The position numbers and the translations under genes are program-made. DNA of 64,000 nt from Psammoneis japonica. Lineage: Eukaryota. The stretch covers positions 186,001 through 250,000 of the forward strand of contig QPGO01000116.1 in assembly GCA_008632985.1 (NCBI GenBank), written 5' to 3'. Below are positions 1,701-54,479 of this stretch, piece by piece (the stretch's first letter is position 1; every line of letters begins with the position of its first letter). The notes beneath the pieces are model-generated. The model was given only the letters and a program-made list of their open reading frames with translations. It did no database searches and was not told the DNA's origin.

Positions 1701-1914
1701 GGTTGCTCACAATTCCATCGGTCATCTGAAAAAAAATGAGCTGCGCGTCGCCGCAGGATTTGTTGATATCGGTCATTGAATACATTTCATGACAGTTTAT
1801 ATCTTATTGGGATAAATAATGTGGCTGGCCAATTATTTGGGTTGATTTTTTGGTATATATTAGTATTCTTATACTTTTAATATACTCTCGACGGTTACAC
1901 GGAGCACTCGACTT

Positions 1915-4900
1915 GTTCGACTCAGTTTTCAAACATTGTTGGGTTTGGCGTTGGGTCATGGGTCATCACACACATCATTCATCATCAGCAATTCAATTCA
2001 AACTCTTAAAACCGACAACAATCTCAGGCATGCCTGATTGTCCTTTCAAGGCACAACTGTGGACAGGGTCAGAGCGTCTGCACATGTCCATTGCAATTTG
2101 TTTGATTTCCTTGGTTTTTCTGTCTTTCCATTTTCCTCCACTTGCTTTTGACACTTTTGCACTTGTGTCTTGCACTTTTCCCAAGTTTGCTTGAAATGCA
2201 ACCTTTTTTGCAATTTCAACAAAACACAGCTGCTTTTGGACTGCATGGATTGGCCCCATTCCTGCTGCTGCTGCTGCCCGGTGGGAGGGGGGGGCAAGAG
2301 CCTCTTGTTGTGCTTCCAGCGATGCAGCGATGGGGCAGCCAAAGCAGTGGTCGCCAAAACAAGGTGGCAAATGTTGCATTTCTTTTGTGGGCAACAGCAG
2401 CTTTGCAACATTCTCTTGTTCTGTCACTTTTGTGTGTGGGAGGCACATGATGCTGCGCACAAAATCTCTTTTTCTGCTTTGGTGTTGTTGCTCCTCTTTT
2501 GCCTCACACACCCAGCAGGCAATGAAAACGAAGATGTGCTGCAAAAGCCCTGCTGTCAAAATCATGAGCTGGTTCATTGTGAAAGTGGAGTCATGCGAAT
2601 GGGAAATCATGCCAAATTCCTGCTTGTTGTGTGGATTGTGTGGGGGGCTTTGGAGTGAATGTGTGTTCTTCCTTTTCGGGCCAAGCTCAACACATCACAC
2701 GAAGGTCCTTTGCACCATTTTGGCACACCAATGTCACAGGGTGAGGTGTTGCCTTCAGAAAGTGAGTTGGCAAACCAGGGTGCATTGCACCACAAATGGC
2801 GCATTGCTGTTGTGAAGAGGTGAGCAGCACTTGGCAAAATCTGAAGGAAGAATGATGGAGCCATGCAGCTCAACCAACTTTCTTGATGCATCTCAAAAGT
2901 GCACACCTCTTGTGGTTGTGGCCAACTTGTGGAGAAGCACGCCAAAACTTGAGAAATGTCAAGAAGAAAATGGAGGCAAAGAACGAATGGCCCTGACCTG
3001 GTTTTGATGATCATGCTGCCAGCTTCTTGTCTGTTGTGTTTGACCCCCCTCCTCTGCTCAAGCAATGACTCAATTGTGACATCATCCACATGTGCACATG
3101 TCACCTGAATGGCACAAGGCCATCTTCTTGACTCATTGCTTGTCACAATCATTTCAACACCAGGTGGCTACAAAAGTTTTGAAAGGTCTTTGCTTGTCCA
3201 AAATCTTCTCAACTCATTGCAGGTCACAAGAATCATTCCCACACCATGTGATCACAAAAGTTTCAAAAGGTCTCAGCTTGTCCCAAATCATTTTCTCATG
3301 CATGGGCCAGTCTTCAAAGCATGTGTGCTTGTGTGGACTCTTCTTCTCACCCTTTTTCTTGACAATTCCCACAATCTTGTTCACGGAATCTTCATCAACA
3401 TGGAAAAGCCATTGTTTGGAAGGTGGGCAACCAACATCTTCATCAAGGTGCCAGCTTTGGAGGCACAAGTCTTGAAAAATGCTCACAGCTCCAGGCAAGA
3501 CTGTCCATCTCATGCTGGAAAGCACACTTTGGTGATTTTTGGAGCATTTGGATGACAGAGGAGGAAAACATGAAAAACATGAGAAATGCAAAGAGCCCAG
3601 ATGTGTTGAAGAAAAGACACACTGTGGCACCTGACATGGCTCATTTGGCAGCTCATTGAGAGCAAGCTTTCACCACCACCAATCTCTCACATTTTAGTTT
3701 CACCTCACTCTTTGGAGTGAATCATTTGGTTTGTCATTTGGCATCACTGTGGGTGCCTGTTGCATCACAAGTTTGAAGTTCACATTGATGACTTCTTCTT
3801 GGCAACCCATGGCTGTTGCAACTGACCAAGGCACAAGTGTGTCAAGCAGCACAGGAAGCCCAACAGGACTTCCTTTTGGAAAAATTGACTTGCCAGCTCA
3901 GCACTCACTCCAAACAATCACCGGCACAATGAGTGTCAGAGTCATGGTTGCAAAATCCCAATGTGTTTTTGATGCAGTTGCATGAAGAGCTTCATTTGAT
4001 TGGCTCAGTTTTCAAACACTGGGTTTGGTTGGCATTGGGTTGTTGGCAGCAGCTCAGCTCACAATGTCAAAACTTGCAACAAGCTTGTCACACCTGATGT
4101 CCTTTCAATCCACAACTGTGAAAAGGGTCAGAGCATCTGCACATGTCTGCACTTGAAGTTCTTGTGTTGTTGTTGCTCTTGTCCCCCAGCATTTGTTGTG
4201 TGCTTTCAACAGCTGCTCAGGGCAATCAGCTTGACAAACTCAGTTTTCAAACATTGGTTTGGTCAGTGTTGGGTCATCATCATCAGCACGTTCAACCATG
4301 TTTGTGTGCGTGTGCGTGTGCCTCACTCTCGCATGTTGAACAAACACCGTGACAGAGGGAGGTGCCCCAGGTGGCAGGCAGCAGAGGCTGCCTGGGTTTG
4401 TTGTTTTTTCTTGCAGCACAATTGGCTGCTTTGTCAAGAACCACAGTTGGGCTTTTCACCAAAAAGAGGAAACAGAAAGCAGCAAATCAAGAAAAATGCC
4501 AAGAAAAAGACCTCAAAAGCCCAGCACCCCTCTTCTTCTTTTTCTCTGTGTGGCATGCAAAAAAATGTGACCAAGGGCAGTGACCAAATGGCAAAAACCA
4601 AACAGCCAACTCCTTTGTGGAAATCTCATGCACTGCATTTTTCTGACCTCTTGGCATCTCCCACTTGCTTTCTAGAGCACAAGCCATTGGGGTCTGGCTG
4701 CCTGGTGGAAATCTGGATTTTTTTAACTCTGCAACCTGTGTGTGTTTTTGGCATGCTGCCAAGCACAATCTAAGAATTGACCCTTTCCAAACAAAAGCAA
4801 CCTGCACACTGTCATTCCCTTGACTTTCTGTTGGATGAGCACACTGATTTCTGCAGCTGGCTTTGTGGGTGTCTGTGCTCCTGGCAAATGCATGGCAACT

Positions 4901-5200
4901 CTGTTGGCTTTCTTGGGTTTTTTATCTTTTTTGTTTCCTGCCAACATTTGACAAACATTGACCCACCCACAGCTTTGTTTTTGTGCCCTGCACTTTGCCA
5001 AAGTTTGCTCACAGCAGCACTGTTTTTGTTTGCAACTTTGACAAAACACTGCTGCTTGCCAGGGGTGGGACAAAGCTGCACAAAAGAATGCACACACAAA
5101 GAAAATTGGCCCATGTTGCATCTCTTTCATGTGCAACAGCAGCTTTCTGACACTCTCGTTCTGGCACATCTGTGTGTGGGATGTACACAGCATCTGCAGC
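1915..5200 (+). repeat. Dispersed diverged repeat family inside block A
   Basis: ctcagttttcaaaca..ggg recurs at about 1921, 4004 and 4239. cctga(t)tgtcctttcaa..cacaactgtg..agggtcagagc.tctgcacatgtc occurs at about 2032 and 4094. atgttgcat.tcttt..gcaacagcagcttt..tgtgtgtggga occurs at about 2371 and 5113. Confidence 0.7.
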
Positions 5201-6528
5201 ATGTTTTTTTGTGCTTGGCAAGAAGATCAATTGACAAGAAACAAAGTTTTCACACACCTGTGATTGCACTCTCCACAGGTGCAACAATTTTTCAAAAATC
5301 AAACAAGGTGGCAACTGCAGCTGCAACTCTGAAGAATGATGTTTGACACTTGCTCATTTTCAGTCACAAATCTGTCATTGCTGAAGCCATCAACCAGGTT
5401 GACAGTCAATTTCTCCAGCAGTCATGGATTTGCAATGTTTTGTTTTGTGGCCCAGCATCTTGTTGAGAGCTCAGTTGACTCACATTTGTTTGGAAGAGCT
5501 TCTTCAGCTTGGTTGCACCAATCCGCTGCTTGCGTGATGATGGTGCACCCCCCTGTTGCAGATGCACCCCAGCCACACATGAACCAAAACATGCACAAAA
5601 AGGCACTTGTGTGATTTTAGAATGGTCTCTGACTTGCAAACCAACTTTTGCCACCAAAGGCATGGGGACTTGTCCAAATTTTAATGTTTTGCAACACCAA
5701 CAAGACTCGTGTCACAGTGTTGCAATGTCATTGTTTTTGTGCGATCAATGTGTTTCATTGCAAAAAACTGGTTGCAACACAACAGATGATTTTTGCCAAA
5801 TTTTTTGAAGATTCACACACCACTGCTGTTTGAAGGTCAATGCAAAACATTTTTCTGTGCATTTTGCGGTGGCAATCCAGCACTCACAAAAAAATTCTCT
5901 GTGGCATGAGTGCCAATGCACAGTTGGCATTGTTTCCGCAGAAAATTTTCACGACACACATTTGATGAAGACTTGAGCACCAATGAAAAAAATGTTCAAA
6001 TGTCCACACTCTTGTCAAGTGCAAAAGCCAGAGTGCACTGGTGTGTGTCCACTGTCTGTGTTGCTCTTCCTTGTTGCTCTGTGAGCACACAAGCTTTTGT
6101 CTCTTGCAGAAGATTGCACAGGGTTGTTCAGATGCTGTGCTTCTTGTGGAAGTGCCGACACCAATTTGCTTGTTGGAGAGAAGGGTGGGCACTCCCCATG
6201 ACCTGACTCCAGGACCCAGACTTGCATGAGTGGGAGTTGCAGCCAAGGCCCCGGAGACAGAAAACTTGTTTGTTGTTGAGGTTTTGCACAGAGGTGAGGG
6301 TGTTGTCAACAAGATTGGCCATGAAGACTCACTTGACAACTGGCAGCAGGAAAGCTTGACAAAGGAAAAATGTGCAGCATGCAAGAGCCAACAAAGCTCA
6401 ATTTCACATTTCTGGCTTGCACCCCCCCAACCAATGCTCCCACGAGACCCACTCTTGCTTGAACTTTTCAGATCACCATGAAATGGAAGATGGCTTGCTT
6501 GTTCATTGCAGTTTTTTGTTGCTTCCTG

Positions 6529-6730
6529 GAAAGTTGACAAAGCTGACAAAGTTGACAAAGTTCATCAAAGCTGACAAAGTTGCCAAAGTTGACAAACTCA
6601 CCAAAGTTGACAAAATCAACAAAGTTGCCAAAGTTGAAAAAATCACCAAAAGTTGACAAAGTCACCAAAACTGACAATTTTGCCAAAGTTGACAGATTTG
6701 CTGAAGTTGACAAAGCTGACAAAGTTGTCA
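6529..6730 (+). repeat. 9-bp minisatellite (consensus AAAGTTGAC), about 20 imperfect units
   Basis: Directly visible: aagttgacaa agctgacaaa gttgacaaag ttcatcaaag ctgacaaagt tgccaaagtt gac... Confidence 0.9.
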
Positions 6731-6764
6731 TTCAGCAACCAAACCTTTGAGTGAGTCACTCTGG

Positions 6765-8545
6765 AGTTGGAAAAGTCAAGTCTGCTGTTGTCAAGAACAA
6801 GGTGATGCTCAACCGCCATTCTCAAAGTGTCGCCTGGCTGGGATCCAGCACCCTGCTGCTGTTGTGGGCAAGGTGACAAGGGGCACAACAATGCCACAAG
6901 ATCGACCTTGCAATGCTCAACCACTGTTCTCAAAGTCTTGCAGGAGATTCGCCAGAGACCACCAGTGCCCTCAGAGTGCTGTTGCCATGGTGGTTGGCAC
7001 CATCGTGACGACCCTGCAGCTTGAGAGCAAAGCCTGCACAGCACAGCTTTCCGTGAACTGCAGCTTTTGTGCAAAACCTGCACCCCGCAGCTTTGTGCAC
7101 CCTGCATCTTTTAAGCAAAACCTGTGCCATGTAGCTTTCTGTGCTGCACAGCTTTTGTGCAAAACCTGCACCCCACAGCTTTCTTTGTGAAGCTGCAGTT
7201 TTTGTGCAAAACCTGCACCCGGCAGCTTTTGTGCAAAACCTGTGACCCAAGTTGAGAAAGTCAAGTCTGCTGCTGTCAAGGACAAGAAGGTGGCATGGGG
7301 CCACAATGCCACAAGATCAACTTTGCAATGCCCAGCCACAGTCCTTGAAGTGTTGCCAGGGATCCTCCAGAGACCGCCCGTGCCCTCAGGTTGCAGCCCT
7401 CAGGTTGGCTATGGCACTGCCCTGTCAGGCAGCTTTTTGTGCTGCACAGCTTTTGTGCAAAACCTGCACCCCACAGCTTTGTGCACTCCACAGCTTTCTT
7501 TTTGAAGCCGCAGTTTTTGTGCAACAAAACCTGCACCCCACAGCTTTTGTGCAAAACCTGCGCCCCAAGTTGAGAAAGCCAAGTCTGCTGCTGTTGAGGA
7601 CAAGGTGGCATGGGGCCACAACACCACAAGATCAACCTTGCAATGCCCAACCACACAGCCCTTGAAGTGTTGCCCCAGGGATCCTCCAGAGACTGCCACA
7701 ATGCCCTCAGCTTGCAGCCCTCAGATTGGCTGGCACTGTCATGGGGTCCTTTCACAGTGGAGAGTTTCAAAGCTCAAAAGTTTGCTCAACACCACAAGAT
7801 CAACCTTGCAATGGTGCTCAACCACAGCCCTTCAAATCTTGCCAGGGGGTCCACCAGACACCACCAGTGTTGTCCTTGGCCTGCTGTTGTCAGGTTGGCT
7901 GGCACTGTCATGGTGTCCTTTCACTGCAGAGTTTGGAAGCTCAAGCATGCTCAACACCACAAGATCAACCTTGCACAGTTTTTTTAAAGTCTTGCTGGGG
8001 GTTCACCAGATGCCACCAGTGTCCTCAGCTTGCTGTTGTTGGGTTGGTTGGTGCTGTCATGGGGTCCTTTCACTCTTGAGTTTAGAAGCTTAAATCTGCT
8101 GCTGTCAGGGACAAGGTGACATGGGGCCACAATGCCACAAGGTCAACCTTGCAATGCTCAGCCACCACTCTTAAAGTCTCACAGGAGGTCCACACCAGAG
8201 ACCACCAATGCCCTCAGCTTGCAGCTGTCAGATTGGCTGGGATGCCATCATGGAGCCCTTCTTCTTTCATTTTGGAGCTCTTGTTGTGAGTTTGAAGTGA
8301 GCTTCTGGCTGGGAGGATGTGACAGGCTGCTGGAACAGCACAACACACTAGCCTCACATTGTGAAATGCTCAACCACAGTTCTTGAAGTGTTGCCTGGGG
8401 TCCACCACCAGAGACCACCGGTGCCCCCAGCCTGCTGTTGCTTGTTGTGTTGGTTGGTGCCTTCACAGGGCCATTTCACTCTGAGAAGCTTGGGAGTTCA
8501 AGTCTGCACCCACCTGCTGGGCACAAGGCAACATGGGGCCACAGC
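6765..8545 (+). repeat. Degenerate complex tandem array (units about 165-420 bp) with nested sub-repeat CAGCTTTTGTGCAAAACCTGCACCCC
   Basis: The core cacaagatcaaccttgcaatg recurs at about 6895, 7311, 7625, 7793, 7958 and 8136. The sub-repeat occurs several times in 7060-7250 and 7447-7567. Confidence 0.85.
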
Positions 8546-11107
8546 AGCACATGACCACAACATGATTGGCATGGGCAACCACCACCTTGTTGGGGAGAAG
8601 GAATGTTGGCAGGAGGTGCTGCAGCTGCAGTGGTGCCCCCAGGGCTGTTGCTCCTCTGGCTCTTTGTGGTGGGCACATCACACTCTGGCTTGACCAACTC
8701 TCTTTCCATGACACCACCTGCTGCATGGCCAACTCCACAACCTCTTCTGACCTCCTGCCTGCAAGGTTTGACCATGATGAGAGTGCATCAGCAGCAAAGG
8801 TTGTTTTGTGCATGAGCCATTTGTGGGTCAGTTGCAAGATCATCAGCAGCAGCAGCCCTGTGCAGACACAAACAACAAACAAACTCCACAGGCTGGCACA
8901 AATGTGAAAATTTCATTCTTGGCAAGAGCCAACTGAGATGACAAAACTGACTTCTCTGACACAAAAACAATGTCAAACATCCAGCTGCTTGACAAATGTG
9001 AGTTTACAAGCAAAAGGCACTGGTTGTGAAAACCAACAAAATGATTTACTTGAGCTGACTCAAACAACCCAAAGTGACACCAAATGAGTGCAACAAAAGG
9101 CTTTTTTCTTAAAAAATGACCACTTGCAAAATGACACAGGCTGTGATCACCAGGCTGGCTAGCTCAGCTCCCACTGTGCCACTCAAAACAACACAAAAAC
9201 ACAGGGTGTGCCCAAGCAGTGCACAAACAAAAATGGCACTGCAGGAAAGCACCAACAAAACCCAGAGCTCTGTGCAGCACACCAACAAAGAAAAGCCATG
9301 GACAGGGCAAGAGGTCAGATGCTTTCATGCTTTCTGCATTTTTTGAAACTCGGTTGAGCCAACAAAAATGGTCAAAGACAAGAAACACAGTGCCGCAACA
9401 TTGTGCATGCAGGCAAGCAGGAACAGCAGCATTGTGCCACCCCAAAGCCAAAGAAAACATGCCAAGCTGACAACTTCTCTGCTGTCTTCTGCCAGGGATT
9501 CCTGTGGCATCTCACAAGGAAGGGCTGTCACAAAAACCAACTCTGTTTGAAACACACAAAATGTTGAAACACAGTGCAATGCCTGTGCAGCTAAGAACAC
9601 CAAGATGTGATGCAGGCTGCCAGAGAGACAATGGGGAGCAGAGGCTTGGGCCCATTCCCACCCCAATGATTGTGGCTGCAAAATTTTGTTCTGCACAAAA
9701 TTCCTGCAGCAACTCTTGCACAAGAAGAGCTGCATGTCTGTTTTTTTATCCATGTCAATTTGCAGCCACAATTGTCAGCAAATTGTGATGACAGACATCA
9801 GTCATCACAAATTCTCTTCCACAAGTGCAGTTTTCATCACAAATGTTTGGCATTTTTGGGAGCTCAAGCATGTCACGTCACAAGTTCTCCCATTTTTCTT
9901 TCTCTAATCCACGCAACCTTCAAGGCTGCTGCCGTGAATGGACCCATCAATGCACAAACAACTCCTCTGTCCACAAAGACAAGAATGCAAAGACATGTGA
10001 ATGAGGCTGTGCTTGATGCAACCAAGTTGTCAGAATTTTGATTTGTTGTTGTTGTTGTGGCTTGCAATGAACATGTTGACCAACAGCGCCATTTTTGATG
10101 TCTTCGTTTCTCTTGTTCAGATTTTGCACTGGGATTTTTCACAAACAATCTGTCTGCATGATGAGACTGTGTGATCTGATGTCACATTGAGGTGGTTCTT
10201 TGGTGTGCACTCCAGGTTTTCTTTTGACAGATGGTCAAGAGTCAAAGAGCACAACAATTTTGATCACACCACACTGCCACCAACAACAAGGCTTTCTGCC
10301 TTGCTGCTGCTCTTTGCTTTCTCTTTCACACAGAACTTTTTTGGGGTGTGGGGGGCATGACATGCCATGTGCTGGCTTGCTGAAAAGAAGCAAAAAAAAA
10401 GACAGCAGTTCTTCAAAAATAGAGCTCTTCCTTCCACTCTCTTGTGTGAAAATGCTTGTGAGAAATGAGGGCCAGAAACATCTTATTCTCTAACGCCATC
10501 CGTTGAGGAAGGAGGTTATTTACCGTTACAAGTTGTCATAAGTAAACAAAAAGCGATGATACTCCGAAAATTTTGCTTGTCTTCGCATTTCTAATGATAA
10601 TAAACGAGATCTTATAATTATATATTGAATAAGTATATATTCATGATCATATACATGTCAATGAAGATAACGGCGTCGGAACTTCACGCGGCAAACATTG
10701 GCACTTGGATGGGACTTCACAGCACGCAAAAATGAAACAAACCATCGAGGCGAGTCGGAGACTGGCACTAAACGATCTCGGCAATACAACGCACTGCTGT
10801 TTAGGGAGAGACAACATCCTTGTCATTCAAAGAACTGCTGTAAGAGTATCTGGTTGAAAGCAGAGAAAGAAGAAGGAGAAAAGAGCGAAAGAAAAAGGAG
10901 AGATAATCGAACTTTACAACTCGGTAATTTTGGCGAGTCGACATGCTAGGCAAGATTTAGGCTTTTTTATCGGTCGCTCTTGTCACGTCGAAAAGCGTCG
11001 AAACGCTCTAGGCCTCGCTTTGAGACTTTAAGGACTTACTGGGCTTGATTTTATCCTTATACATACAAACTTATCGAGATTATTGTGGTCCTAAGTCCTA
11101 ACAGCAT

Positions 11108-12958
11108 ATGAAAATGGCGGCTCCCGATATGGATGAAGGGTCCACATCCACCCAACCTATTAAGTCTCCCAACAACAACGACGTACTGTGTGGACGAGGA
11201 GGAAATATTAACTCCCACCCCGGTAACGAGCGTTTTCGGAGCATGGTGGAGAAGCATAGAAGAGTCTATTTGAATGCTCGCTTCAAAGAGGAGAAGCGAC
11301 TTATCGCGACTACAATTGTGGATGAGATTAGAGCTCTTGATCCACCGGGGCGTTTCTTAAGCAAAGACCTAAACACGGGAACTTGGTGTGATATCGGGGA
11401 CTCCAAGGCAAGGGACAAAACTTCGCAAGCATTGAGGGAGAACGCACCGTCAATACGAGCCGGTATGAACGGGGAGAAGAGGCCAAAACCGAAACGGAAA
11501 AAGAAGACATCAAAGACTTTAGCTCCACCATCGTATATGCAGCAGCCACAGTGGAATGGAGCTTACCCTCCTGCTCCTGGCTACTATGTCCCACCGCAAG
11601 GGGTTCAGCCGCCACATGTTGTCAGTTCTCTTCCTTATGCTACTCATCCAGGGGTACCTCCGAATGCTCAGCCTCAGCTTGTCAATAGCGCTGCTCCACC
11701 ACAACAGCAACAGCAGCATCCCAACATGGTGTGGTCAGCCCCACCGCAGCAGCAAGTGGTTCCTGGAATGATGACTCAAGGTCCGGCGCAGACGAATACT
11801 GCTGCTGCCCCTTCTAGTTCACAAGCAATTCCAGATCAAGCAATTCCAGATCACGTCATGTCTAGTGATTCCGCTCAGCAAAACGGTTCCTTCGCACCGA
11901 CAGCGCCCTCGTCTCTACCACGGGAGCGGAGCCGCGGCAACGAAAAGAGCCAGCTTTCACTTACTCCTCTCAAGCCTACCAACAACCAGGAGGAAGAAAC
12001 TCAAGTTCAACTTATGGATATCGAGGGGGAGGGCAACACCGCTTCATCGTTACTAAACATGGTTGCCACTCACATTTTGGGTGCTTGGGATATGGACGCC
12101 GTATGCGGAGCCGACGAGGATATAATGAGGAAAGCAAAGCAAGAAAACAAGATGCGGTCGAGTGCTCCGTCCGCGGCTATGCCTCCTCCAAAGGAACGGA
12201 GAAACGACAGTACCGACGACTCTTCTCGAGCTTGGGCTGCTGTGGACACAAAGCATTCCTTTGCAAGTCTTGCGGATAATTCCATGATTACTCCAACCGC
12301 TAGTATGGATATGGACGGATGTCCGAAGGAGTGGCAGGGCGTCGCTACAGACATGGATGCCCAGAGCATTGGTTCGTTTTCTTCGGGGCTCATGTCTATG
12401 AATGATCATGTACTGAGCCAAGTGCCTTCGTGGGAAGGGAGCATCATGTCGGCAGCCTCAAAGCAACGAGATTCATTTTCTATTTCCGCTGTGCCATCAC
12501 GGCCTCATCCTCCATATGAGTCTGAAGCTAGCTTTGATACGAACACGATGACTCAAGATTATGCTGATACACGCATGGCTATCGCTCTCCAGCAACAAGA
12601 GAATGTTGCAGCTTTTGAGACTTTCAAGAAGCGTCTGAACACACAAGCCAAGGCTGGTGACAACCGGACTGCTCGCTCCAGTGCCCTGGATCATCTCAAG
12701 GCAGTTCGTGAGAAGGACCCACTCGACCAACGAATGCAGACTTCTTCCCTTGAGCACACATCCTCGTATGTTCCTCCTGTTGACCAAACTAGTCTCCCAC
12801 AAGAGCTTGCCGATCACCAATTGGCTATGGAATTGCAACGGTTTGAGCAGGCACGTGTGGGAACCGTGCAGCAGATGGAGAAGCTACTCAAGCAGGAGCA
12901 AAACAGTGGCAACGACTTTAGTTGCCAACGCACAGGTAGAAGTGTGTACAAATTTTGA
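11108..12958 (+). CDS. DUF6824-domain protein, intronless paralog of 49-1700, with low-complexity middle and C-terminal D..(L/M)A..LQ..E motifs
   Basis: 616-aa ORF with normal TA/CG content: NDVLCGRGGNINSHPGNERFR...YLNARFKEEKRLIA...PPGRFL...KARDKTSQALRE. Confidence 0.9.
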   Translation: MKMAAPDMDEGSTSTQPIKSPNNNDVLCGRGGNINSHPGNERFRSMVEKHRRVYLNARFKEEKRLIATTIVDEIRALDPPGRFLSKDLNTGTWCDIGDSKARDKTSQALRENAPSIRAGMNGEKRPKPKRKKKTSKTLAPPSYMQQPQWNGAYPPAPGYYVPPQGVQPPHVVSSLPYATHPGVPPNAQPQLVNSAAPPQQQQQHPNMVWSAPPQQQVVPGMMTQGPAQTNTAAAPSSSQAIPDQAIPDHVMSSDSAQQNGSFAPTAPSSLPRERSRGNEKSQLSLTPLKPTNNQEEETQVQLMDIEGEGNTASSLLNMVATHILGAWDMDAVCGADEDIMRKAKQENKMRSSAPSAAMPPPKERRNDSTDDSSRAWAAVDTKHSFASLADNSMITPTASMDMDGCPKEWQGVATDMDAQSIGSFSSGLMSMNDHVLSQVPSWEGSIMSAASKQRDSFSISAVPSRPHPPYESEASFDTNTMTQDYADTRMAIALQQQENVAAFETFKKRLNTQAKAGDNRTARSSALDHLKAVREKDPLDQRMQTSSLEHTSSYVPPVDQTSLPQELADHQLAMELQRFEQARVGTVQQMEKLLKQEQNSGNDFSCQRTGRSVYKF

Positions 12959-18429: not shown

Positions 18430-21385
18430 ACTCATGAATGTGCCAACCTTGCACAAGCTTGCTCTGGGTTGACCTTGGCTTTGCATTCTTGGAAATTGTC
18501 CAAGTAATTCAGTGGGAGCAATGCCATGATCTCTGCTGGTCAATTCACCTGCTACAGAACACCCACATGCGTGCCACAATTGAAAAACAGTCTCTGCTGA
18601 GCAACCAAAGTCAGGACTTACTGTGATGAGCTTTTTGCCAGCTGTGGGTCCAGGAGCAAGTCTCATTTCAATTTGATGGCCCAGCTCAGTTAACACCCCC
18701 CATCATCCAGTGTGCCCATGCACACATTGCTCATCATTTGCAAATGAAGGATTCCGGGGCTGGTGTGGTTTCCTGTGAGCATGACTGAACAATTTTCTAG
18801 CATGCACAGCGCAGCCCACTTGTTGCCTCTTGCACTTGCCCAGAAATGGGCAGCACACCAACAGAGATTGTTTGACATGGATTGTGGGTTGCAGACTGTC
18901 AGGTTGCCAAACCCAGGGTTGACAGCAACATGAACAATCCCACCAAAATCATCAGCAACACTTCAGAAAAGTGTTGGTGTTCATGATTGCTTTGTGGCCT
19001 GCAGGGCTGCACCTGGAACTCAGGGACCAGGTGCACGGGAGAGTGTCTTTTTGTTGTTGTCAAAGGGCAAAGGACAAACCAACAACAACTCTGGTTTTCC
19101 TTGCCCATGACATTTGGGCTGCTCTTTGCACATTTTCATGCCTTCTTGTTTGACTGCCTGTTTTGCCTGCTGCAAGAAGTGCTGGGGCATCTCTCATGCT
19201 TTTGCGCTGGCGCACCGCAGTGTGCTGTTTTCTGGCCACAGCTGTGTGCTCTGGCTGGTTTGCAAGTGGCTTCCCAAAATGCTTCAACAGGGTGTGCATC
19301 CATCAGGGCACATTGTCATGGAAAAATGCTGTTGCACATGACAAAAGATGAGAGGTGGGCATTTTTGACCAAATCAATGCACACTCTTGTTTTCTGAGGC
19401 ATGTCATGTCATTCATCCAGCTCACCTTTTGAAACTTCTCTGCATCAAGGGTTGCACTCATGATCACCAACTTGAGAACTGACTCTTGCAGCTGCCTTTC
19501 TTCAACTTTGGCAGGACTTCTGACAAAATTCTTGCAAGCACGTCAGTGGCAAGAGTCAGCTCATGAGCTTTGTCCAGAACAGCCACACATGGCGCTGCGT
19601 CAAGAGAGGGTCAGATGTGGTTTCCTGCAGCTGTGCACAGTCTGTCTCAAACTTGAACACTGTTGTGCGTAGATTGCTTTGTGACATCATCAAAACAAGT
19701 GCCCAACATGCTGTCCCAACTCAGCATCCATGTCATCAACTGCGTGAGGTGATCATCAAAAAATGATGCCCTTGCATGTCATGTTTGCTGTGCAAACACT
19801 CCATTTCCCATCCAGTCTTGTTTTGGTCTGATGTGTCCATCTTTCTCAAATTCACCATCCACAAGGCTCAGCAACAGTGCTTTGTTGTGGGGAATCTCTT
19901 GTTCTTTGTTCCTTGAGCTCTTCTCCATCACCACCTCTTGCTCTCTTCCATTCTGTCTTTGTCCAGCTTTCTTTCCCAGTGTTCTCAAAATTTGACAGCT
20001 GGTGAAGGCGCAGTTGCAAATGGCGCACTGATGAAGCAAGTTCTTTCCTCAAGTCACTTCCAGATCTGTCAAACAAAGAAAATGCAAATGTTGCCACAAA
20101 GCTTGAGCTTGACTCCAGCATGCCAGTGACATCTGCTGCACATGGCTGGCAAATCACTGGGGCCCTTTGCAGCAAAACATGTTGAGATTGCTGCTTGTTG
20201 GCAACAATCAAAATTGGTGCTTTGTCACACACCCCACACCCCATGTGTGCTGACAGGCAGACTTTGTTCAGCTGGCAGCTGGCAGGAGGTGGTGTTCCCT
20301 GAGATGTGTGGCTGCTTTGGTGTGCAACCACTCTCCAGGAGCGTTCCAAGCCATGCACTGGAGTGCTCAGAATCTTGGCAGTTTGGGTGTCGCCACTTGC
20401 AACAAGAATTGCAATGTGGCAGGCAGTCCATCTGTGCGAAGGTTTCTGCGCACATTTTCAGTTTTGTCATCCATCCCTGCCACCTCCAGCTCAAACTCAA
20501 CCAACCCAATTCCAATTGGATTGGGCCAGAGGTGGTTGGGATGGACAAAAGCACAAAACATGTGCGGAGAAATCACTGCATGGACAGACCGCACCACTGC
20601 GACTCTCATTGCAAGTGGCAACACCCAGGTTGACCTCTTGTGTTGCAGCCTTTGCATCACCAACAGCCCAGTTTTTTCATTGCTGAAGAGAGAGGGAGAG
20701 TGAGAGAGAGAGTGAAAAAGACAGAGAGACTGCATTGAGTTGAGAGTCAAACCAGTTGACTCAGCTGCTGGTCTGTTGACCCTTCAGCCACAAACACCTT
20801 GGATCTTTCTGACACAACAGCCTCAACCACATCAACAACAACAGCAGGCTGCTGATGAAGCCACCATGAAAGTCACACTCCTGACTTTGGCCAACATCAC
20901 TGTGTCTGCTGTTGTGGTTGAGCGAGCGCAGCTGGATGAATGTCTGAAGCACGCGGCCGTGCTTTGCCTTGGCCACACTCTGCTTTTTTTGTTCTTTGTT
21001 GTCATTGTCTTCACTTGGCAGATTGCTGCCATGACAGATCAATCATGTGAGAGAAAAAGAGAGAAAGAAGAGAAAGAGGAAGAAAGGGAACAAAAGCCTC
21101 CCTCAGGAGCTTTGCAGCGATGCTTTGGGGCGCCCCACCTCTCCTTGTTCAAAAAGCTTTTTTTGTGTGTGGTTTGTGAGTTTTCTCTTGTGGCTGGGCA
21201 CCGCCTCACATGCTTTGTGCTCTTGAACCCCCCTTTTCCCTCGCCAGTGGCTCTGCTCATTGTGCAGTGCGCTAGAATCTCTCTAATGCTGAGTGGTTTC
21301 CTTTCGTCGCTTTTGTCGGATGGGATGAATCTCTCCACTGTGAAAGCTGAGGGAGTCATCGCAGACACTTCGAGTTCTGGGACAA
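18430..21385. mobile_element. Block B: TpA/CpG-depleted degenerate region containing a DEAH-helicase gene fragment
   Basis: Compositional switch at both ends and no intact ORF. Confidence 0.55.
19425..19800 (-). pseudogene. Degraded fragment of a DHX15/Prp43-like DEAH-box RNA helicase
   Basis: Across frameshifts the minus strand reads DDMDAELGQHVGH, TTVFKFETD..LQETTSDPLL, AVLDKAHELTLATDVL and LKLVIMSATLDAEKFQK, then a GTGAG donor. This matches the region after motif Ia, motif II (DEAHERT) and motif III (MSAT). Confidence 0.8.
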
Positions 21386-34515: not shown

Positions 34516-34699
34516 GATTGTTGTTTGTTGATCGCAGAAGAAGAAGATGCTGGATGCTCTGTTTATCGCGGTATCGGTTGCAAAAAACAAAAAATGAGCA
34601 GATTTCTTGTGGTCCTCGCCGCACCACGAGGGATGGACAGACGCTTTGTCAATGCATTCACATCATTGCGTCATTTTCTTCATTCATTCCGTTGTCATT

Positions 34700-35440
34700 G
34701 AACGAGCTTCAAGAGCGAGAAAACTGGCGTCACAGTCTTTTATTATATTTTCCTTGTTGCAACACGAAGGCGGTTGTCTGTTGTTGTTGTTGCTGTTGTT
34801 GCTGCATTGCAACGTTGTTGCATTTCACCTGGTGTGCTTTTGAGACTTTCGCTGACTCGATGAGCCACAAGAATTCATCACGGTGGTGGTGATTCAGTGA
34901 AGAACAGTGGAGTGGAACATGTGAAAAAGCCAAAAACAGAGATGCTGCAGTTGGAGCCCCAAAGAGGAACATGCTGTTTTGTTCATTTGTTTCTGTGATT
35001 GGACAAAGGCGCAGCTCAGTCAAGACTTGCAATGACGTGCTGGCTTAAAATTCACAGCAAGTGCCCGCAAATCATGAGACAAAAATCACATCACATTCAT
35101 TGGCAAGGGCTGAATGTGGTGCATCTGCAGTGACTTGAACATCAGAAGCTGCCTGTGCCAAGGATGCGACACAATTGATTTGAGACAAGCAGCGCTGCCG
35201 CTCCCCTCTCCCATGAGCGCATCTGCGTCCAAAGACATGGGTGCCCTTGTCTTGGTGGGAACCATTTTTGAACACTTTGGAGTCAAGTTTGAGCACAAAC
35301 CACCCTTTCCAACGAGCAAGCCCTTTCACATGGTGCAGTGTCTTGTGCTGTCTGAGATGCCTCTGGAGGTGCAGGATGCCATGGTGGGGTGTCTCTTGGA
35401 GTGGTGTGGAGCAATCAACAAGAAATCACATCAGTTGAAG
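34700..35440 (+). pseudogene. Hypermutated duplicate of the upstream region and first ~118 codons of the PH-domain gene at 39658
   Basis: Aligns by eye to 39331-40013, carries stops and indels, and its TpA sites are converted to TpG/CpA. Confidence 0.92.
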
Positions 35441-35443
35441 CCA

Positions 35444-37700
35444 GTCTCTGATGGGCAGGCATTGCAAATCGAGCTGCAAATGGGACCCACATTTGGCGGC
35501 AACATTTTGAGTCAACAGTGACTTTGCAGAGCTGTTCTGGGGTGGAATGTTGTCACAGAGCTTCAAGGGAAGTGCGGTTGTGCACTTGTGTTGAAAAGGG
35601 TCATGCTGCACTGAAGCATGGCTCCAAAACCATGGAGAACGGCCATTGCAAAATCTGTCCAAGTGTTCACAATCAGTGTTTTACAAGATTCTTGCAGAGT
35701 CCTTTTTATTTCCCCCTTGCACTTCACAGTTCCTGCTCAAGCTTCTTCCGTTGCTCCTTTCAGTTGGCCTTTCCTTTGTTCTTGGCAGGGGTTGGGTGCA
35801 TTTGGGGCATCGGACGTGTGTCAGTGGTGCCGTTGGCCATCAACAGTGAGGCACAATTGTCATTGTCAAAAAGACACTTTCTGCTGGTGATCTCTCTCTT
35901 GTCAGCAGTGGCCCGGGTCCATTGTTTTGTCCTTGATTCGGCTTTTCGGACTTTCTCGTTTGGAACAAGCGAAGTGCCTCTTGGCCACACCATGCTTTGT
36001 CCGCTTCTGACTTTGGATTCCCTCGGTTTATTTCCTTGACAACTTCGCAATCGGGAATCTTCCTGCTTCCAATGCCCACAACATTGCAACCACCCGCTGC
36101 TTGTTCGCTCATTTCAACAACGGGTCGATTTTCTGTTGGTGTTCTCACCGCTCTGCATGGCACTCCTCCGCCGCAAGGTCACAGTCTTCATGGAAAGTGT
36201 GACTTCTAATGCACTGCACGATTTTGCAACCGTTCTTGTTGTTGCCTTGGGTGGGAGCTTGGGCAGCAGTCGCGGACCTGCCGCCAGGTTGCTCCGAGTG
36301 AGGAGAACTGGTCGACTGGTCACCCCAGAGAAGTGCAAATGCTTTGGTCAAGACTGGGGAGTTAAGGCCCGGCCGCCCTGAGACTAAGGAGTTCGGGCCC
36401 GGCCCAGTCGAGATTGAGGGTGCGGGCAAGGCTGACCTGACGAATCCTGGGATGAGTCAGGTTTGGCCTGCGATCATCAAAGACAGGAGCGGAGAGAACA
36501 ATCAAAGGCAGTGAGTGAGGGATGACTCGCGGTCAACACAAACAAGATGGAGAAGCAACTGAATGCACTGACTGCTGCTGTTGCGGGACGCTGCTGGCTC
36601 TTCGATGCGTTTTTCCAATTTGGCAATCGTCGCTTCGAACTTGGCCTTGTCGGCTTCCGCCCGGTCGGCCCGGAGTGTCTCGTCTGCTTTCTCCTCTTTC
36701 AACTTGCTCCAATCGAAGCTGGCGATTGGTGGCTTCCGCCCGGTCGGCCTGGAGTTTCTCGTCGATTTTCTTCACTGCCAACTCAGCCATGTCTTTGTGG
36801 CAAGAAACGACTGCCGCCAATGCCGAACTCTCCAAATCTCGTACACCCAACAAGAGACGCTTGAACGATTCTTCATTCTCCTTGGTGGATCCATTCACCT
36901 TGCTGATGGCATTCGCCTCCTTTCGGCACCCATCGGCTTTTGCCTGGAAGCTTCCCTTCTCGGGATGGTTGGGGTTGATCACAGGAAGAAAAGCATCCAC
37001 CGTCCAAAGTGCCGTGAAAAGTCGATGTTCCACCGAAGGGTAAATTGTAGACCGAATGCTTTGACAACAATTTTTTACAGAATGGCTCTTACGGAGTATG
37101 ATCATGCCTCAAATGGCGCGCTGTTGGAGACGGCATGTGGGCTTTGTGATTTCGCAAGGCAGGCTTTGGAGTTCATGTCGAGTGTGCGGGTGCTGGAGAA
37201 ATGGTCCAACAAGTCGCGAGATGGTTTCTTCCATGCGTCGGAGAAGGTGGTCGGGGTGGCATCCGAGAAAGAACTAACGGTTGTCACATGGTCATGGTCC
37301 GCGTGGATCGAGTCAGGGATTTCACGATTTTGACTCTTCCGGTCTTTGGAATTTTTTCTTGCTTGATTTTTTTCCAGATGTTTCTTCCATGCGTCGGAGA
37401 AGGTGGTCGGGGTGGCATCCGAGAACGAACTAACGGTTGTCACACAGCATGGTCCGCGTGGATCGAGTCAGGGATTTCACGATTTTGACTCTTCCGGTCT
37501 TTGGAATCTTCTTCCTCCTTGGCCTTGATTTTCTTTTCCACATTGGACTGGTCGATTTTGCAATGCTTTTGGAAAAGCATTGATGCCATGATTGCATTGC
37601 TGGGCAAAGCAAGTGGCTTGGCATAGATCCTCCTGCGACTGGAAGACCTTCTTGATGACTTCGATTTGTTGTCTAGTGTTGCATCGAAGGTGCCATGGCA
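35444..37700. mobile_element. Middle of block C: unassigned TpA-depleted but CpG-rich insertion with short internal duplications
   Basis: Fragmented minus-strand coding-like stretches (for example 36533-37105) with no recognised domain. Confidence 0.4.
37225..37507 (+). repeat. Near-tandem duplication of ~127 bp (37225-37352 and 37381-37507)
   Basis: tttcttccatgcgtcggagaaggtggtcggggtggcatccgagaa...gatttcacgattttgactcttccggtctttggaat is present twice. Confidence 0.9.
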
Positions 37701-37707
37701 TGCTGCG

Positions 37708-39184
37708 CTACCGCATGTGCTTCTTGACACCATTGCACAGACCTTCATAGTCACACGCATTTGCGGCCTCGAATGCTTCCGCACAGGTGGAGTGCCGCGC
37801 ACCAGTGTTTGTACCAGGCATTGTCAGCTGAGCCAGAGATGACACCAACGAATGTAAATCATGCTGCGGAGCTGGTTGACACCACTCTGCCAAGGGAATT
37901 TGCGGGTGAATGTGTGGTTCGGGGGCCCCAGCATACAACGTCCTCTCGTTTGCCGGCACACTGGATCCCCAGTCGTTGAGGAGTGCTTCATTGTCGCTCA
38001 AACTAAAAACATTCGATGCCCGAACATCCCGATGAATGATGCCAGCCGCGTGAATTATCTTCAACTTTTGGACAAGTTGTTCAACATGAGCTTTCGTAAC
38101 ATCTTCATGCTCAGTGGAGTGCCTTGCGGTGTTGTAAGAGAGCATCTTCCTTCTGTCGCAACAACACAAGGCACCTGCACAATTGGCGTTGTGGTGTCCC
38201 TTGTCGCATCCGAAACAATCTTCCAAGCTTTCTCTGTTCGAGAAGCATTTTCCTAGCGACACCACCATCGTCACACAGTTTCGCAACAACTGACTCCCCT
38301 CCATGCGTTGCCCCGAATGCACGACAAGTCCCTCCAGGTCAGAGAGGTTCACGAAAGGTGACAGGCAATCCATTGACAACGGGTGGTTGACGATGCCCTG
38401 TGTCTTCACACATCAGTTGAAGCCAAATTTTCATACCATGTTCAAAATTCATGACGTTTGACATGCACCATCGAACGAGAAATGGTGATGTAGTAGATCT
38501 GCAACCTTTGACGAGAACAATGAGGTGGTTGTCAGTGACAAATCCATGCCGAACTGCCTCGCAGGTTGAGGTCGAGCATTCGATGCACGTAGAGCATTAT
38601 TTGGCCTTTTTCTGACGCAGATGTTCCCGTCCAAGTGCTTCCCTTGCAGTCTCCTGCTGCAACAAAGTCTGTCGCTAATGGCTTAGCCACACCTGAAGAG
38701 AAAAAGGAAATGTCAGGGATCTTTGTGCCAAGATGTGCGATCTCATAACCGTTGTTCAATGGCGGTAGGATGTTGTGTTGGCTCAGAACGGCGTTCCAAT
38801 ACGGTTTGACGGTATTTCTTTCCGACCCACTGTTGTCTGAAGCTTGTTTGAGGTTTGAGGCACGCTGGTGGCTCAACGGAGCTTGAGTTGATGGGCATCA
38901 GTGCCTCTGGTTGCCAAGCTTCGATCCTGTCCTCTCGTGCTTTCTCATCGTAGTATTCCGCATAGCTCACAGCTCTCGATTCGTTGATCAAGCTTTTTCA
39001 ATGCCCGTAGATCCTCTTGCGCTACGCTGCGCTCCTGCTTCTGTTGTGTGAGCTGTTCAAACCGTGTCTTGAATTCCACTCGTTCGGCAACAGATACAGC
39101 ATTGAACTCTTCAGGTTCGATTGGAATATCTATTAACCATTTCTTATAGGCTTCGTTGGTTATCCTATCCCAAGGAGTCGTCAT
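37708..39184 (-). pseudogene. Disrupted gene for a restriction-endonuclease-fold + protein kinase protein (Crinkler/FunK1-like architecture)
   Basis: N-terminal helical header, KIPDISFF...AAGDCKG (PD-(D/E)xK-like), GQIMLY, and kinase motifs GIIHRDVRASN, LNDWG and HDLHSL. Several frameshifts, and apparent Tyr->His/Cys changes in the 3' half. Confidence 0.72.
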
Positions 39185-39657
39185 GATGCTTGTCTCGTTG
39201 TACTTCTGTAGCTAGCGGTATGTAGATACGGTAGATAGAGTAGCAGCTGTTGTACCTATGTCTGCACTCGCGCTGTTTGCTTTTTAGTTCCATTACTGTA
39301 TCCAATTCTACAATTATGTATGTTGTATTTGAACGAGCTCCAAGAGCGAGAAAACTCGCCTCACAGTCTTTTCTTGTTGTCTGTTGTTGTTGCTGCTGCG
39401 CCGCTGCTGCGTTGCAACGTTATTGCATTTTACCTGTGCTTTTGAGAGTTTCGCTGACTCGATAAGCTACAAGAATTCATCACGGTGGTTGTTTAGTAAA
39501 GAATAGTGGAGTGGAACACGTGAAAAAAGTGAAAAAAGACACTGTAATTGGAACTCCAACGAGGAACATACCGTTTTATTTCTGTGCATAACGACGACTC
39601 AATCAAGACTTACAATGACGTGCTGATTTAAAATTCATACTGAGTTTTTCGTAAATC

Positions 39658-49212: not shown

Positions 49213-49588
49213 AATTCTTACACGTCGTGAGCAATCAAGGTCTTGTTGCCGTGATTTTTAACTTTTGAGATGAATGGCCCTTGCTTGGAGCTGCCGTGGT
49301 GGACAAAGTTGAGGTTTTATGGGAATGCCAAGGAGTTCATCGAACTTCCTCTGTGACAAACTTCAATGCATGTCTGAGAACCACGACTAAACGCGGTGAC
49401 CCAAGTAAGACCCAAAATACGCGTTTTCTCCCTGTCCGTCGATCCGTTTTTCTTTTAGTTCGCGGATGCTTGATTCGCAGTTCGCGGATGCGATGGCTAT
49501 GGAAGTCATCATTTGACCATTCTCAAGAGTAGGATCCTTCCATCGACTGAAGAGATGACTGATGTTGGAATCCGGTTCATATCAACGA

Positions 49589-53484: not shown

Positions 53485-53642
53485 GGTTGATTATTTCTTT
53501 CTTGCGTTGCCTGCAGAGCAGACATGACCGAAGATGAAATCTTTCCATGCGCGCGAACATTTTCGACGACCGTCGAACGCGCACTCCGTCGTGTAGATAC
53601 AGACAAAAACAAACCACGGACGCACAAGCAAATCGACAATGC

Positions 53643-54451: not shown

Positions 54452-54479
54452 GGTGGGGGGGGGGGGGGGGGGGGCAGCT

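Follow-up and report, generated by a model that had tools for sequence, protein, structure and literature searches.

Five blocks in the window, the whole 64-kb stretch of Psammoneis japonica DNA analyzed here, have lost nearly every TA and CG dinucleotide to TG or CA, and survival of the few TA steps left depends on the base that follows the adenine on each strand. The genome is diatom-like, and the purged stretches sit between genes and are sharply bounded. The changes run from TA and CG toward TG and CA, fall on both strands and form no strand runs. We favor, at about even confidence, a domain-restricted, strand-symmetric transition process that acts site by site in silent DNA through a CpG arm and a TpA arm. 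The observation followed up here, a block purged of TA with a bias among its survivors, is real.

Position and content of the purged blocks

In the blocks, observed-to-expected ratios (o/e) are 0.04 for TA and 0.22 for CG, TA loss being the more complete of the two, and 1.82 for CA and 1.70 for TG; the flanks have 0.57 for TA and 0.97 for CG. Base composition, G+C included, is equal in blocks and flanks. AA and TT are raised in the blocks (1.32 and 1.33), and ApT is mildly lowered (0.68). Simulation of the TA and CG rules alone on flank DNA gave 1.83 for CA and 1.78 for TG, near the observed values, but fell short for AT (0.87 versus 0.68 observed) and GC (1.12 versus 1.25 observed). These rules yield only part of the AT loss and GC gain; either A>G changes also occur at ApT or elsewhere, or the ancestral composition differed.

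Block A (1950 to 10420) is intergenic, flanked by two DUF6824 paralogues in inverted orientation, and retains 25 TA over 8.4 kb, including 17 YTAR. The last normal TA and CG before it lie at 1896 and 1949, and the first TA and CG beyond it at 10420 and 10494; the blocks in general begin and end abruptly, within tens of bases. Block B (18430 to 21270) has four TA left and contains a decayed palindrome of approximately 250 bp (20379-20632), with a self-complementarity of 66% as letters and 88% in purine/pyrimidine code. Five TA remain in block D (49625 to 51770). Block E (53600 to 60050) retains 15, 13 of which are YTAR; its left end carries a tandem duplication of approximately 410 bp (53643-54043 and 54048-54453), and its right end is G-rich, with CG just half depleted. 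No strand is assigned to blocks A, B, D and E.

The core of block C (34890 to 36000, plus strand) is a mutated partial duplicate of the promoter and first 120 or so codons of a neighboring gene. The homology spans 34691-35440; over 91 residues, the amino-acid identity with the ORF at 39655-41346 is 65%. The intact source copy (39322 to 40017, plus strand), which comprises the upstream region and the 5′ part of the 564-aa ORF at 39655-41349, has normal TA and CG content and provided the unmutated reference with which block C was compared. The tail that follows the core, to about 37040, is TA-poor and CG-normal. For 36950-38950, a reading as a TA-only zone was discarded: 7 of its 30 TA are YTAR, and since its TA contexts are flank-like we read it as an ordinary TA-poor gene region.

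No Pfam family was found inside any block core among the 104 block ORFs of at least 100 aa, nor among the 150 scanned of the 178 ORFs of 55 to 99 aa; the lone match at the curated cut-off, a kinase fragment at 37711-38412, lies outside the block core. In a tblastn search with 61 flank ORFs against the blocks, the known block C paralogue alone matched, and purine/pyrimidine-coded comparison of the blocks with the rest of the window gave nothing new above a reversed-sequence control. The window had no Rfam match. The serine acetyltransferase adjoining blocks D and E, used as the query of a metagenome scan, gave 20 loci, all distant, with partial matches of 31-63%, none of them syntenic. The proteins from a protein search were 41-65% identical, and the species-named matches were mostly raphid pennate diatoms. 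One DNA sequencing run contained 0.93 of the window's words and two runs of the same sample next to none; among the runs listed, no RNA run carried the window sequence. In our literature search, neither a joint purging of TA and CG nor a hypermutation of repeats by A:T>G:C turned up.

Direction and strand of the changes

The mutation spectrum was derived from a single paralogue pair (555 columns) together with five pairs of repeats inside the blocks. Over its 555 aligned columns, block C differs from the intact paralogue by 87 transitions (A>G 24, T>C 25, C>T 19, G>A 19), 22 transversions and several indels. The 18 TA of the intact copy became CA (nine), TG (seven) or AA (one) in block C, with one kept, and its 33 CG gave 13 TG and 13 CA, with four kept. 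Unchanged in block C were 31/37 CA and 36/44 TG. The CpG excess rate would be roughly tenfold, as estimated from the counts in this alignment. A>G changes were found at 16/35 TAN sites, compared with 32/253 sites with another 5′ base. The 23 TG and 25 CA outcomes fell into 28 runs versus 25.0 expected (z = 0.89); strand choice is thus random for each site.

In the five within-block repeat pairs we counted 138 transitions and 57 transversions between copies, the differences including 19 CA-versus-TG doubles, 14 CG-versus-CA/TG and 9 TA-versus-CA/TG, as expected when each copy resolves its sites independently. These repeats are 92-93% identical in purine/pyrimidine code where letters give 77-86%. 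Since 4% transversions as well as indels separate the block C copies, the process appears to be long-term, with no single burst.

This history bears on an alternative that we regard as unlikely, namely a RIP-like burst that is premeiotic, triggered by duplication, limited to one or a few rounds and possibly driven by a RID-related DNMT4, with the context rule being that of the enzyme. Block C does duplicate a nearby gene segment, the within-block repeats were mutated after duplication, and the block edges are sharp. RIP in Neurospora and other ascomycetes is likewise transition-only, sharply bounded, directed at non-functional or duplicated DNA, selective for a dinucleotide and destructive of coding sequence. 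According to one survey (PMC9998398), DNMT4/RID-like genes are present in many diatoms, and diatom DNMT4, whose function is given there as unknown, groups with fungal RID. However, RIP as described in PMC2621366 consists of C:G>T:A changes only, mostly at CpA, and raises TpA while lowering G+C, whereas the blocks lose TpA at unchanged G+C. Mutation of both copies over the duplicated length is not observed either: the intact copy is untouched, neither copy is mutated in the first 200 bp or so of the shared segment, and mutation continues past the segment end. The five blocks have no detectable similarity to each other or to other DNA of the window, even when purine/pyrimidine-coded. The absence of strand runs and the long history indicated by transversions and indels also argue against such a burst.

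Context of the surviving TA steps

As the original prediction held, most TA remaining between 1900 and 10480 are YTAR, with 17 of 26, the others being six YTAY, two RTAR and one RTAY. The 17 YTAR sites and three exceptions that it listed were all found, within 1-3 bases of the positions given. Non-YTAR sites are still a minority, but there are six more than listed, at 4923 (tttTAtct), 7132 (atgTAgct), 9005 (gttTAcaa), 9047 (attTActt), 9747 (tttTAtcc) and 10420 (aaaTAgag). In the core of block A (2000-10400; 17/25), the YTAR excess has a binomial p of 2e-8 against the flank share of 17% and of 1e-3 against its own first-order expectation of 36%.

The five blocks together have 39 YTAR among 57 TA (68%), compared with 252/1500 in the flanks (p = 8e-18), 86/406 (21%) in non-ORF flank DNA (p = 3e-14), 36% expected from block composition (p = 7e-7) and 24% for the context of CA and TG within the blocks (p = 2e-12). 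Blocks A (17/25) and E (13/15) each show the bias on their own; in blocks B (2/4), C (4/8) and D (3/5) the sites are too few for single tests. Scaled to flank density, survival is 0.275 for YTAR (39 versus 141.8 expected), 0.058 for YTAY (12 versus 206.5), 0.019 for RTAR (4 versus 212.6) and 0.007 for RTAY (2 versus 283.0). Thus, normalization of the NTAN counts in blocks versus flanks does not make YTAR as depleted as the other classes, and the proposal that RTA and TAY are preferentially struck is borne out. No ATAN is present in the blocks, compared with 470 in the flanks, and TTAA is barely depleted. Within YTAR, survival spreads approximately fivefold: 0.59 for TTAA, 0.32 for CTAA, 0.16 for TTAG and 0.12 for CTAG.

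These values are accounted for by a rule that acts on each strand separately. Per-strand survival of TA by the base 3′ of the adenine is 0.77 for A, 0.32 for G, 0.11 for C and 0.04 for T, with a flank baseline that assumes that the blocks once resembled flank DNA. The 16 NTAN counts all agree with the product of the two strand effects (deviance 16.25, 12 df, p = 0.18), and the one-base 3′ model is better than a purine/pyrimidine rule (likelihood ratio test, chi2 = 20.9, 2 df, p = 3e-5). The order of contexts is unchanged with ORF, non-ORF or uniform baselines, and also in A, E and B+C+D taken separately. The next base contributes as well, A at +2 being found at 51% of block TA sites versus 25% in flanks. 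The paralogue alignment gives the same preference, with A>G at 13/21 TAY versus 3/14 TAR (Fisher p = 0.036) and, at adenines without a 5′ T, at 22/118 NAY versus 10/135 NAR (p = 0.008). YTAY outnumbers RTAR 12 to 4 (p = 0.08), a possible mild strand asymmetry outside the model.

The 4-base context rule of the original prediction is therefore a real sequence preference, but YTAR does not itself constitute the rule. For a TA to survive, its context must be poor on both strands, which yields the order TTAA >> CTAA/TTAG > CTAG, together read as YTAR. The fivefold spread within YTAR and the second-base effect indicate two 3-base half-rules with some further reach rather than a 4-base word. To take the preference as a sign of an enzyme or a specific lesion is a reasonable inference, one that does not single out an enzyme.

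It follows from these data that true palindromic recognition, the 4-base rule in the sense of the original prediction, is improbable; in it TTAA, CTAG and CTAA/TTAG would be protected as 4-base words, for instance through a site-specific methylase or a bound protein. While 68% of survivors are YTAR and two of the four words are palindromes, the product of two independent one-base effects fits the 16 classes and predicts the variation within YTAR. It also predicts the intermediate survival of half-good sites, TTAC/GTAA (seven sites) and TTAT (five sites), and the 3′ effect on A>G holds away from TA too.

Also quite improbable is an assembly or base-calling artifact, whereby modified DNA (5mC at CG, a modified T or A at TA) would be misread as TG or CA by a long-read caller. 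Both targets are palindromic, like those of maintenance-type modifications, and the single sequencing run that contains the stretch is possibly the source of the assembly itself. However, strand-majority misreading should give long runs in the same direction, whereas TG and CA alternate randomly over tens of bases. Repeat copies differ at the 19 CA-versus-TG sites and by 57 transversions, and block C differs from its paralogue by transversions and indels besides transitions. Moreover, approximately 10% changed bases should leave domains detectable, yet the 254 block ORFs of at least 55 aa have no Pfam family in a core. The graded context rule for survival argues against misreading as well.

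We consider it highly doubtful that the residual TA are new arrivals, regenerated by ordinary mutation with a preference for T-rich or A-rich surroundings. The enrichment of AA and TT in the blocks would fit, and the nine repeat-pair sites with TA versus CA/TG can be read in either direction. Nevertheless, random origin from block CA and TG predicts 24% YTAR rather than 68%, and the removal rates measured in the alignment follow the same context order. One TTAAAA (TA at 35046 to 35047, no strand assigned) is retained in both the mutated block C copy and the intact copy. Even with some new TA, the standing distribution reflects context-dependent removal.

Least probable of all is selection or foreign origin, with transcribed or virus-derived DNA kept low in UpA and CpG and its remaining TA tolerated or functional: RNA viruses and cytoplasmic RNAs are described as combining CpG and UpA suppression with CpA/UpG excess (PMC3829696, PMC3985648), but an o/e of 0.04 goes far beyond mere suppression of the viral kind, block C is a broken host gene copy with 16/18 TA lost to transitions, the scanned block ORFs contain no viral or other protein family, and the within-block repeats drift freely.

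Proposed process and known systems

In the domain-restricted transition process that we favor, the blocks would be non-coding or pseudogenic stretches of silent DNA, including at least one dead partial gene duplicate. Both self-complementary pyrimidine-purine steps are converted to TpG or CpA, TpA by A:T>G:C and CpG by G:C>A:T; composition stays unchanged. On each strand the adenine of T-A-N becomes G, with a hazard that depends on the next base (T > C > G >> A, in a ratio of roughly 12:8:4:1) and more weakly on the base after it. The CpG arm would probably be 5-methylcytosine deamination in CG-methylated silent DNA, and the TpA arm a separate activity limited to the same domains, which would either deaminate adenine, preferring T-A-Y, or modify the thymine of R-T-A so that it mispairs with G. 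The process would act over long periods. To our knowledge, there is no natural enzyme with A:T>G:C activity on TpA in duplex DNA. We infer that these blocks are silent methylated domains; diatom transposable elements are reported to be CG-methylated, a methylation removed by loss of DNMT5a (PMC9998398).

More tentatively, diatoms or this lineage may possess a G+C-neutral counterpart of RIP, a pathway limited to chromatin domains in which both steps would be edited chemically in duplex DNA; its TpA arm would be the first natural nuclear A:T>G:C hypermutation system. The T-A-N rule would then be the footprint of an enzyme, either a T-A-Y adenine deaminase or a 5-methylpyrimidine oxidase acting on 5mC-G and T-A. 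The known heritable hypermutation of eukaryotic silent DNA (RIP, methyl-CpG decay and APOBEC footprints) is C-to-T chemistry; if TpA is removed by A:T>G:C in restricted domains, nuclear genomes would have a mutational chemistry that is new for them, one that here equals or exceeds CpG loss in efficiency and leaves a three-base footprint that can be measured. It would account for DNA that is scrambled with no shift toward AT, and points to a natural adenine- or thymine-modifying activity on duplex DNA, with a bearing on genome defense and base editing. Any candidate enzyme must match the order T > C > G >> A 3′ of the adenine. Other algae can be searched for the signature, i.e., TA and CG near zero, CA and TG doubled, and survivors in the order TTAA > CTAA/TTAG > CTAG.

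The CpG arm resembles the methyl-CpG decay of vertebrate and plant silenced transposons, which is also confined to silent DNA and converts CG to TG and CA equally on both strands (13:13 here). A mild preference for 5′ T or A at CG in the blocks is a further likeness, per-strand CG survival by the 5′ base being 0.27 for T, 0.34 for A, 0.40 for C and 0.68 for G. Basidiomycete fungi have a TCG/CG-targeted hypermutation of silenced transposons, with a TCG preference. Methyl-CpG decay leaves TpA untouched, whereas block C keeps 1/18 TA versus 4/33 CG; since TA is lost besides CG, such decay covers half of the phenomenon.

The TpA arm shares with adenosine deaminases (ADAR, TadA/ADAT, fungal Tad2/Tad3) the A>G outcome and a strong need for a 5′ T (U). 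The natural TadA target is U-A-C, the TadA/ADAT signature being T (U) at −1 and C at +1. In the blocks T at −1 does boost A>G, and TAC is favored but not uniquely, TAT being struck at least as much (+1 order T >= C > G >> A). Their substrate is RNA, edited on one strand and frequently within hairpin loops, whereas here both DNA strands are affected, at random for each site: instead of the one-strand A>G clusters of ADAR type, 23 outcomes on the plus strand are mixed at random with 25 on the minus strand. TAG and TAA, favored in fungal editing, are the contexts that are protected in the blocks. Fungal A-to-I mRNA editing is described as strongly requiring U at −1 (PMC11156358). APOBEC3 editing of retroelements is similar in its context-dependent deamination and its inherited hypermutated copies. 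The substrate of APOBEC3 is single-stranded DNA, where its C>U conversion leaves strand-coordinated runs of G>A, with no A>G arm or palindromic targets; the blocks lack strand runs.

The view that 6mA at ApT alone is insufficient agrees with the data. 6mA is described as marking transcribed genes, with no obvious mutagenic effect in that account (PMC12695648). The main target in the blocks is TpA in all 5′ contexts, with ATA, GTA and CTA all lost, to 0.01, 0.03 and 0.09 of their flank frequencies, respectively.

Five purged blocks in a gene-dense region

The analysis covered one 64-kb window, in which gene density is high and ORFs are long and intron-poor. Five intergenic stretches are nearly devoid of both TA and CG: blocks A (about 1950-10420), B (18430-21270), C (34890-36000), D (49625-51770) and E (53600-60050). 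Pooled observed/expected ratios in the blocks and in the flanks were 0.04 and 0.57 for TA and 0.22 and 0.97 for CG, with an excess of CA (1.82 against 1.17) and TG (1.70 against 1.15), a deficit of AT (0.68 against 0.96) and a gain of GC (1.25 against 1.04). Blocks and flanks do not differ in base composition. The process is G+C-neutral, and it is limited to non-coding or pseudogenic stretches with sharp borders, within tens of bases. No Pfam family was found within the block cores, either among 104 ORFs of at least 100 aa, the lone kinase fragment falling outside the core, or among the 150 ORFs scanned out of 178 of 55 to 99 aa. The five blocks show no similarity to one another, even with purine/pyrimidine recoding.

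Three window ORFs carry DUF6824 (49-1455 and 48169-49257, minus strand; 11102-12958, plus strand), and each adjoins a purged block. Block A lies between the first two, which are inverted paralogues with arms at 1143-1437 and 11213-11507 (72%). Other ORFs belong to SET, Rap-GAP, ubiquilin-like, trigger-factor-like and serine acetyltransferase families. In a protein search, the serine acetyltransferase matched only proteins 41-65% identical to it; the minority of matches with a species name came mostly from raphid pennate diatoms (Epithemia, Amphora, Seminavis, Nitzschia, Cylindrotheca, Fistulifera). This argues for a diatom-like source, of which no close relative was found with this query in the collections searched.

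Direction of change

At its start, block C carries a duplicate (34691-35440) that covers the region upstream of an intact ORF (39655-41349) and the first ~120 codons of that ORF. Identity between the two is 77% at the letter level and 92% after purine/pyrimidine recoding, with 65% amino-acid identity over 91 residues. The mutation spectrum was drawn from 555 aligned columns of this pair, which hold 87 transitions and 22 transversions, and from five repeat pairs internal to blocks A and E. The 18 TA sites of the intact sequence became CA (9), TG (7) or AA (1), and one was kept (TTAAAA); the 33 CG sites became TG (13), CA (13) or other dinucleotides (3), and 4 were kept. Conversely, 31 of 37 CA were unchanged and 3 became TG, while 36 of 44 TG were unchanged and 3 became CA. 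The change therefore ran from normal sequence to TG/CA. Both strands were affected, site by site, and the strand hit was random along block C (23 TG and 25 CA outcomes in 28 runs, 25.0 expected).

Comparison of the five repeat pairs gave 138 transitions and 57 transversions. Among them are 19 double differences with CA in one copy and TG in the other, the outcome to be expected when each copy converts an ancestral CG or TA on its own. When flank DNA was subjected in silico to the TA and CG rules alone, the block excess of CA (1.83) and TG (1.78) was reproduced. The AT loss and GC gain were recovered only in part, so that some A>G outside TpA, or another starting composition, is needed.

Other repeats within the blocks bear similar traces. 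In block B, a palindrome of about 250 bp (20379-20632) is self-complementary at 66% as letters and 88% in purine/pyrimidine code, indicating a former near-perfect hairpin that transitions later eroded. Block A holds nested tandem arrays (6512-6729, 7000-7200 and 6850-8560) with a 9-bp unit resembling AAAGTTGAC, a 44-bp unit and 165-420-bp units; in all of them mutation came after amplification. CG-rich, normal sequence just outside block A (1885-1959) aligns with 4203-4277 inside it over 75 nt (71%), with CG/TA replaced by CA/TG in the block. This alignment, which fell under the control threshold when searched for in purine/pyrimidine code, hints that block A may also include a decayed copy of adjacent gene-proximal sequence.

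The strongest rival explanation is a RIP-like burst triggered by duplication. One block is indeed a duplicate, and RID-related DNMT4 is frequent in diatoms according to excerpts of PMC9998398. Nevertheless, we consider such a burst unlikely, as the duplicate's intact counterpart escaped mutation, the window's blocks are not related to one another, and RIP makes only C>T changes according to PMC2621366. The block process shares with RIP and methyl-CpG decay context-dependent transitions limited to domains of silent DNA. It differs from RIP in the latter's defining features, since its changes are not C>T only, bring no TpA gain and do not hit both copies, and it goes beyond CpG decay in also removing TA.

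Context of the surviving TA sites

The original prediction held that TA sites surviving between 1900 and 10480 are mostly YTAR (Y, pyrimidine; R, purine), reflecting a 4-base context rule. All the sites it listed exist, although six non-YTAR sites had been overlooked, and YTAR indeed accounts for 17 of the 26 (the rest being 6 YTAY, 2 RTAR and 1 RTAY). Across the five blocks the proportion is 39/57, against 252/1500 in the flanks (p = 8e-18), 86/406 in flank DNA outside ORFs (p = 3e-14), 36% predicted by neighbour frequencies within the blocks (p = 7e-7) and 24% if TA had arisen randomly from block CA/TG (p = 2e-12). The bias is visible singly in blocks A (17/25) and E (13/15). Scaled to flank density, which presupposes that the blocks originally resembled flank DNA, survival was 0.275 for YTAR, 0.058 for YTAY, 0.019 for RTAR and 0.007 for RTAY, and depletion thus remains unequal after normalization, the outcome that speaks for the original observation.

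Individual tetranucleotides are graded. TTAA is hardly depleted (17 in blocks, 51 in flanks; survival 0.59), followed by CTAA (11 and 61), TTAG (6 and 66) and CTAG (5 and 74), and ATAN is absent from the blocks (0 and 470). We fitted a Poisson model with an independent survival factor for each strand, set by the base 3' of that strand's adenine. The factors were 0.77 for A, 0.32 for G, 0.11 for C and 0.04 for T, and the model fits the 16 NTAN classes (deviance 16.25, 12 df, p = 0.18); it also outperformed a purine/pyrimidine version (chi2 = 20.9, 2 df, p = 3e-5). The order A > G > C > T was stable whether the baseline was ORF, non-ORF or uniform, and it recurred in each of the subsets A, E and B+C+D. 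As independent per-strand factors fit all classes, YTAR is the product of two T-A-N half-rules, one per strand. The predicted context preference is therefore real, but two 3-base half-rules take the place of the 4-base word, and the per-strand fit makes a true 4-base word improbable. The +2 position adds an effect: A occupies it in 51% of half-sites within blocks and in 25% within flanks. YTAY and RTAR survivors (12 versus 4) do not differ significantly (p = 0.08).

TA loss obeys the T-A-N rule in the block C alignment as well. Per strand, A>G occurred at 7/11 TAT, 6/10 TAC, 1/4 TAG and 2/10 TAA sites (TAY 13/21 versus TAR 3/14, p = 0.036), and, with a 5' base other than T, at 22/118 NAY versus 10/135 NAR (p = 0.008). 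Thus, the 3' preference recurs in an independent type of evidence. Surviving CG sites follow a weaker rule: over all blocks, per-strand survival was 0.68 where G precedes the C, 0.40 where C does, 0.34 where A does and 0.27 where T does (likelihood ratio test, p = 1e-9), with GCGC surviving best (24 versus 52.8 expected).

A base-calling artefact from modified DNA is quite improbable, given the graded context rule, the random interleaving of TG and CA outcomes, and the presence of transversions and indels. That residual TA sites are new arrivals rather than survivors is slightly more doubtful again, being contradicted by the paralogue alignment; the same alignment makes it barely credible that the blocks derive from a virus or were shaped by selection against UpA/CpG.

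Candidate activities

The CG arm (CpG to TG/CA by G:C>A:T) would reflect 5-methylcytosine deamination in silent, presumably CG-methylated DNA; in excerpts of PMC9998398, CG methylation of diatom transposable elements depends on DNMT5a. The TA arm (TpA to TG/CA by A:T>G:C) would call for a second activity restricted to the same domains. With transversion divergence at 4%, indels present and strand runs lacking, slow, site-autonomous decay appears preferable to a single processive burst. One candidate chemistry for the TA arm is adenine deamination preferring T-A-Y, which would resemble tRNA-type adenosine deaminases in their T at -1 and C at +1 of the target adenine. Alternatively, the thymine of R-T-A might be modified and then mispair with G, as oxidised thymine mispairs. 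PMC3239186 predicts deaminase families, of unknown function, that are specific to stramenopiles. The original proposal was that 6mA at ApT does not suffice on its own; it is indeed improbable as the cause, since the target is TpA in every 5' context; excerpts of PMC12695648 place 6mA on transcribed genes in the species studied, without obvious mutagenic effect. Neither joint purging of TA and CG nor A:T>G:C hypermutation of nuclear repeats is described in the literature searched. We see a considerable, though less than even, chance that the TA arm represents a categorically new DNA-editing pathway.

Block C is followed by a TA-poor, CG-normal stretch (36000-37040; 5 TA and about 58 CG per 950 bp; G+C 0.546), which may represent either a stage at which the process has removed TA alone or simply a G+C-rich gene. 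At the right end of block E (58000-60050; GC skew +0.47), TA is gone (o/e 0.02-0.04) and CG only half-depleted (o/e 0.24-0.49); thus, either TA has been lost more completely than CG, or A>G at CpA is regenerating CG. Finally, a 156-bp tandem duplication adjoining block C (37219-37543; 90-98% identity) consists of normal, unmutated DNA, indicating that this young local duplicate escaped attack.
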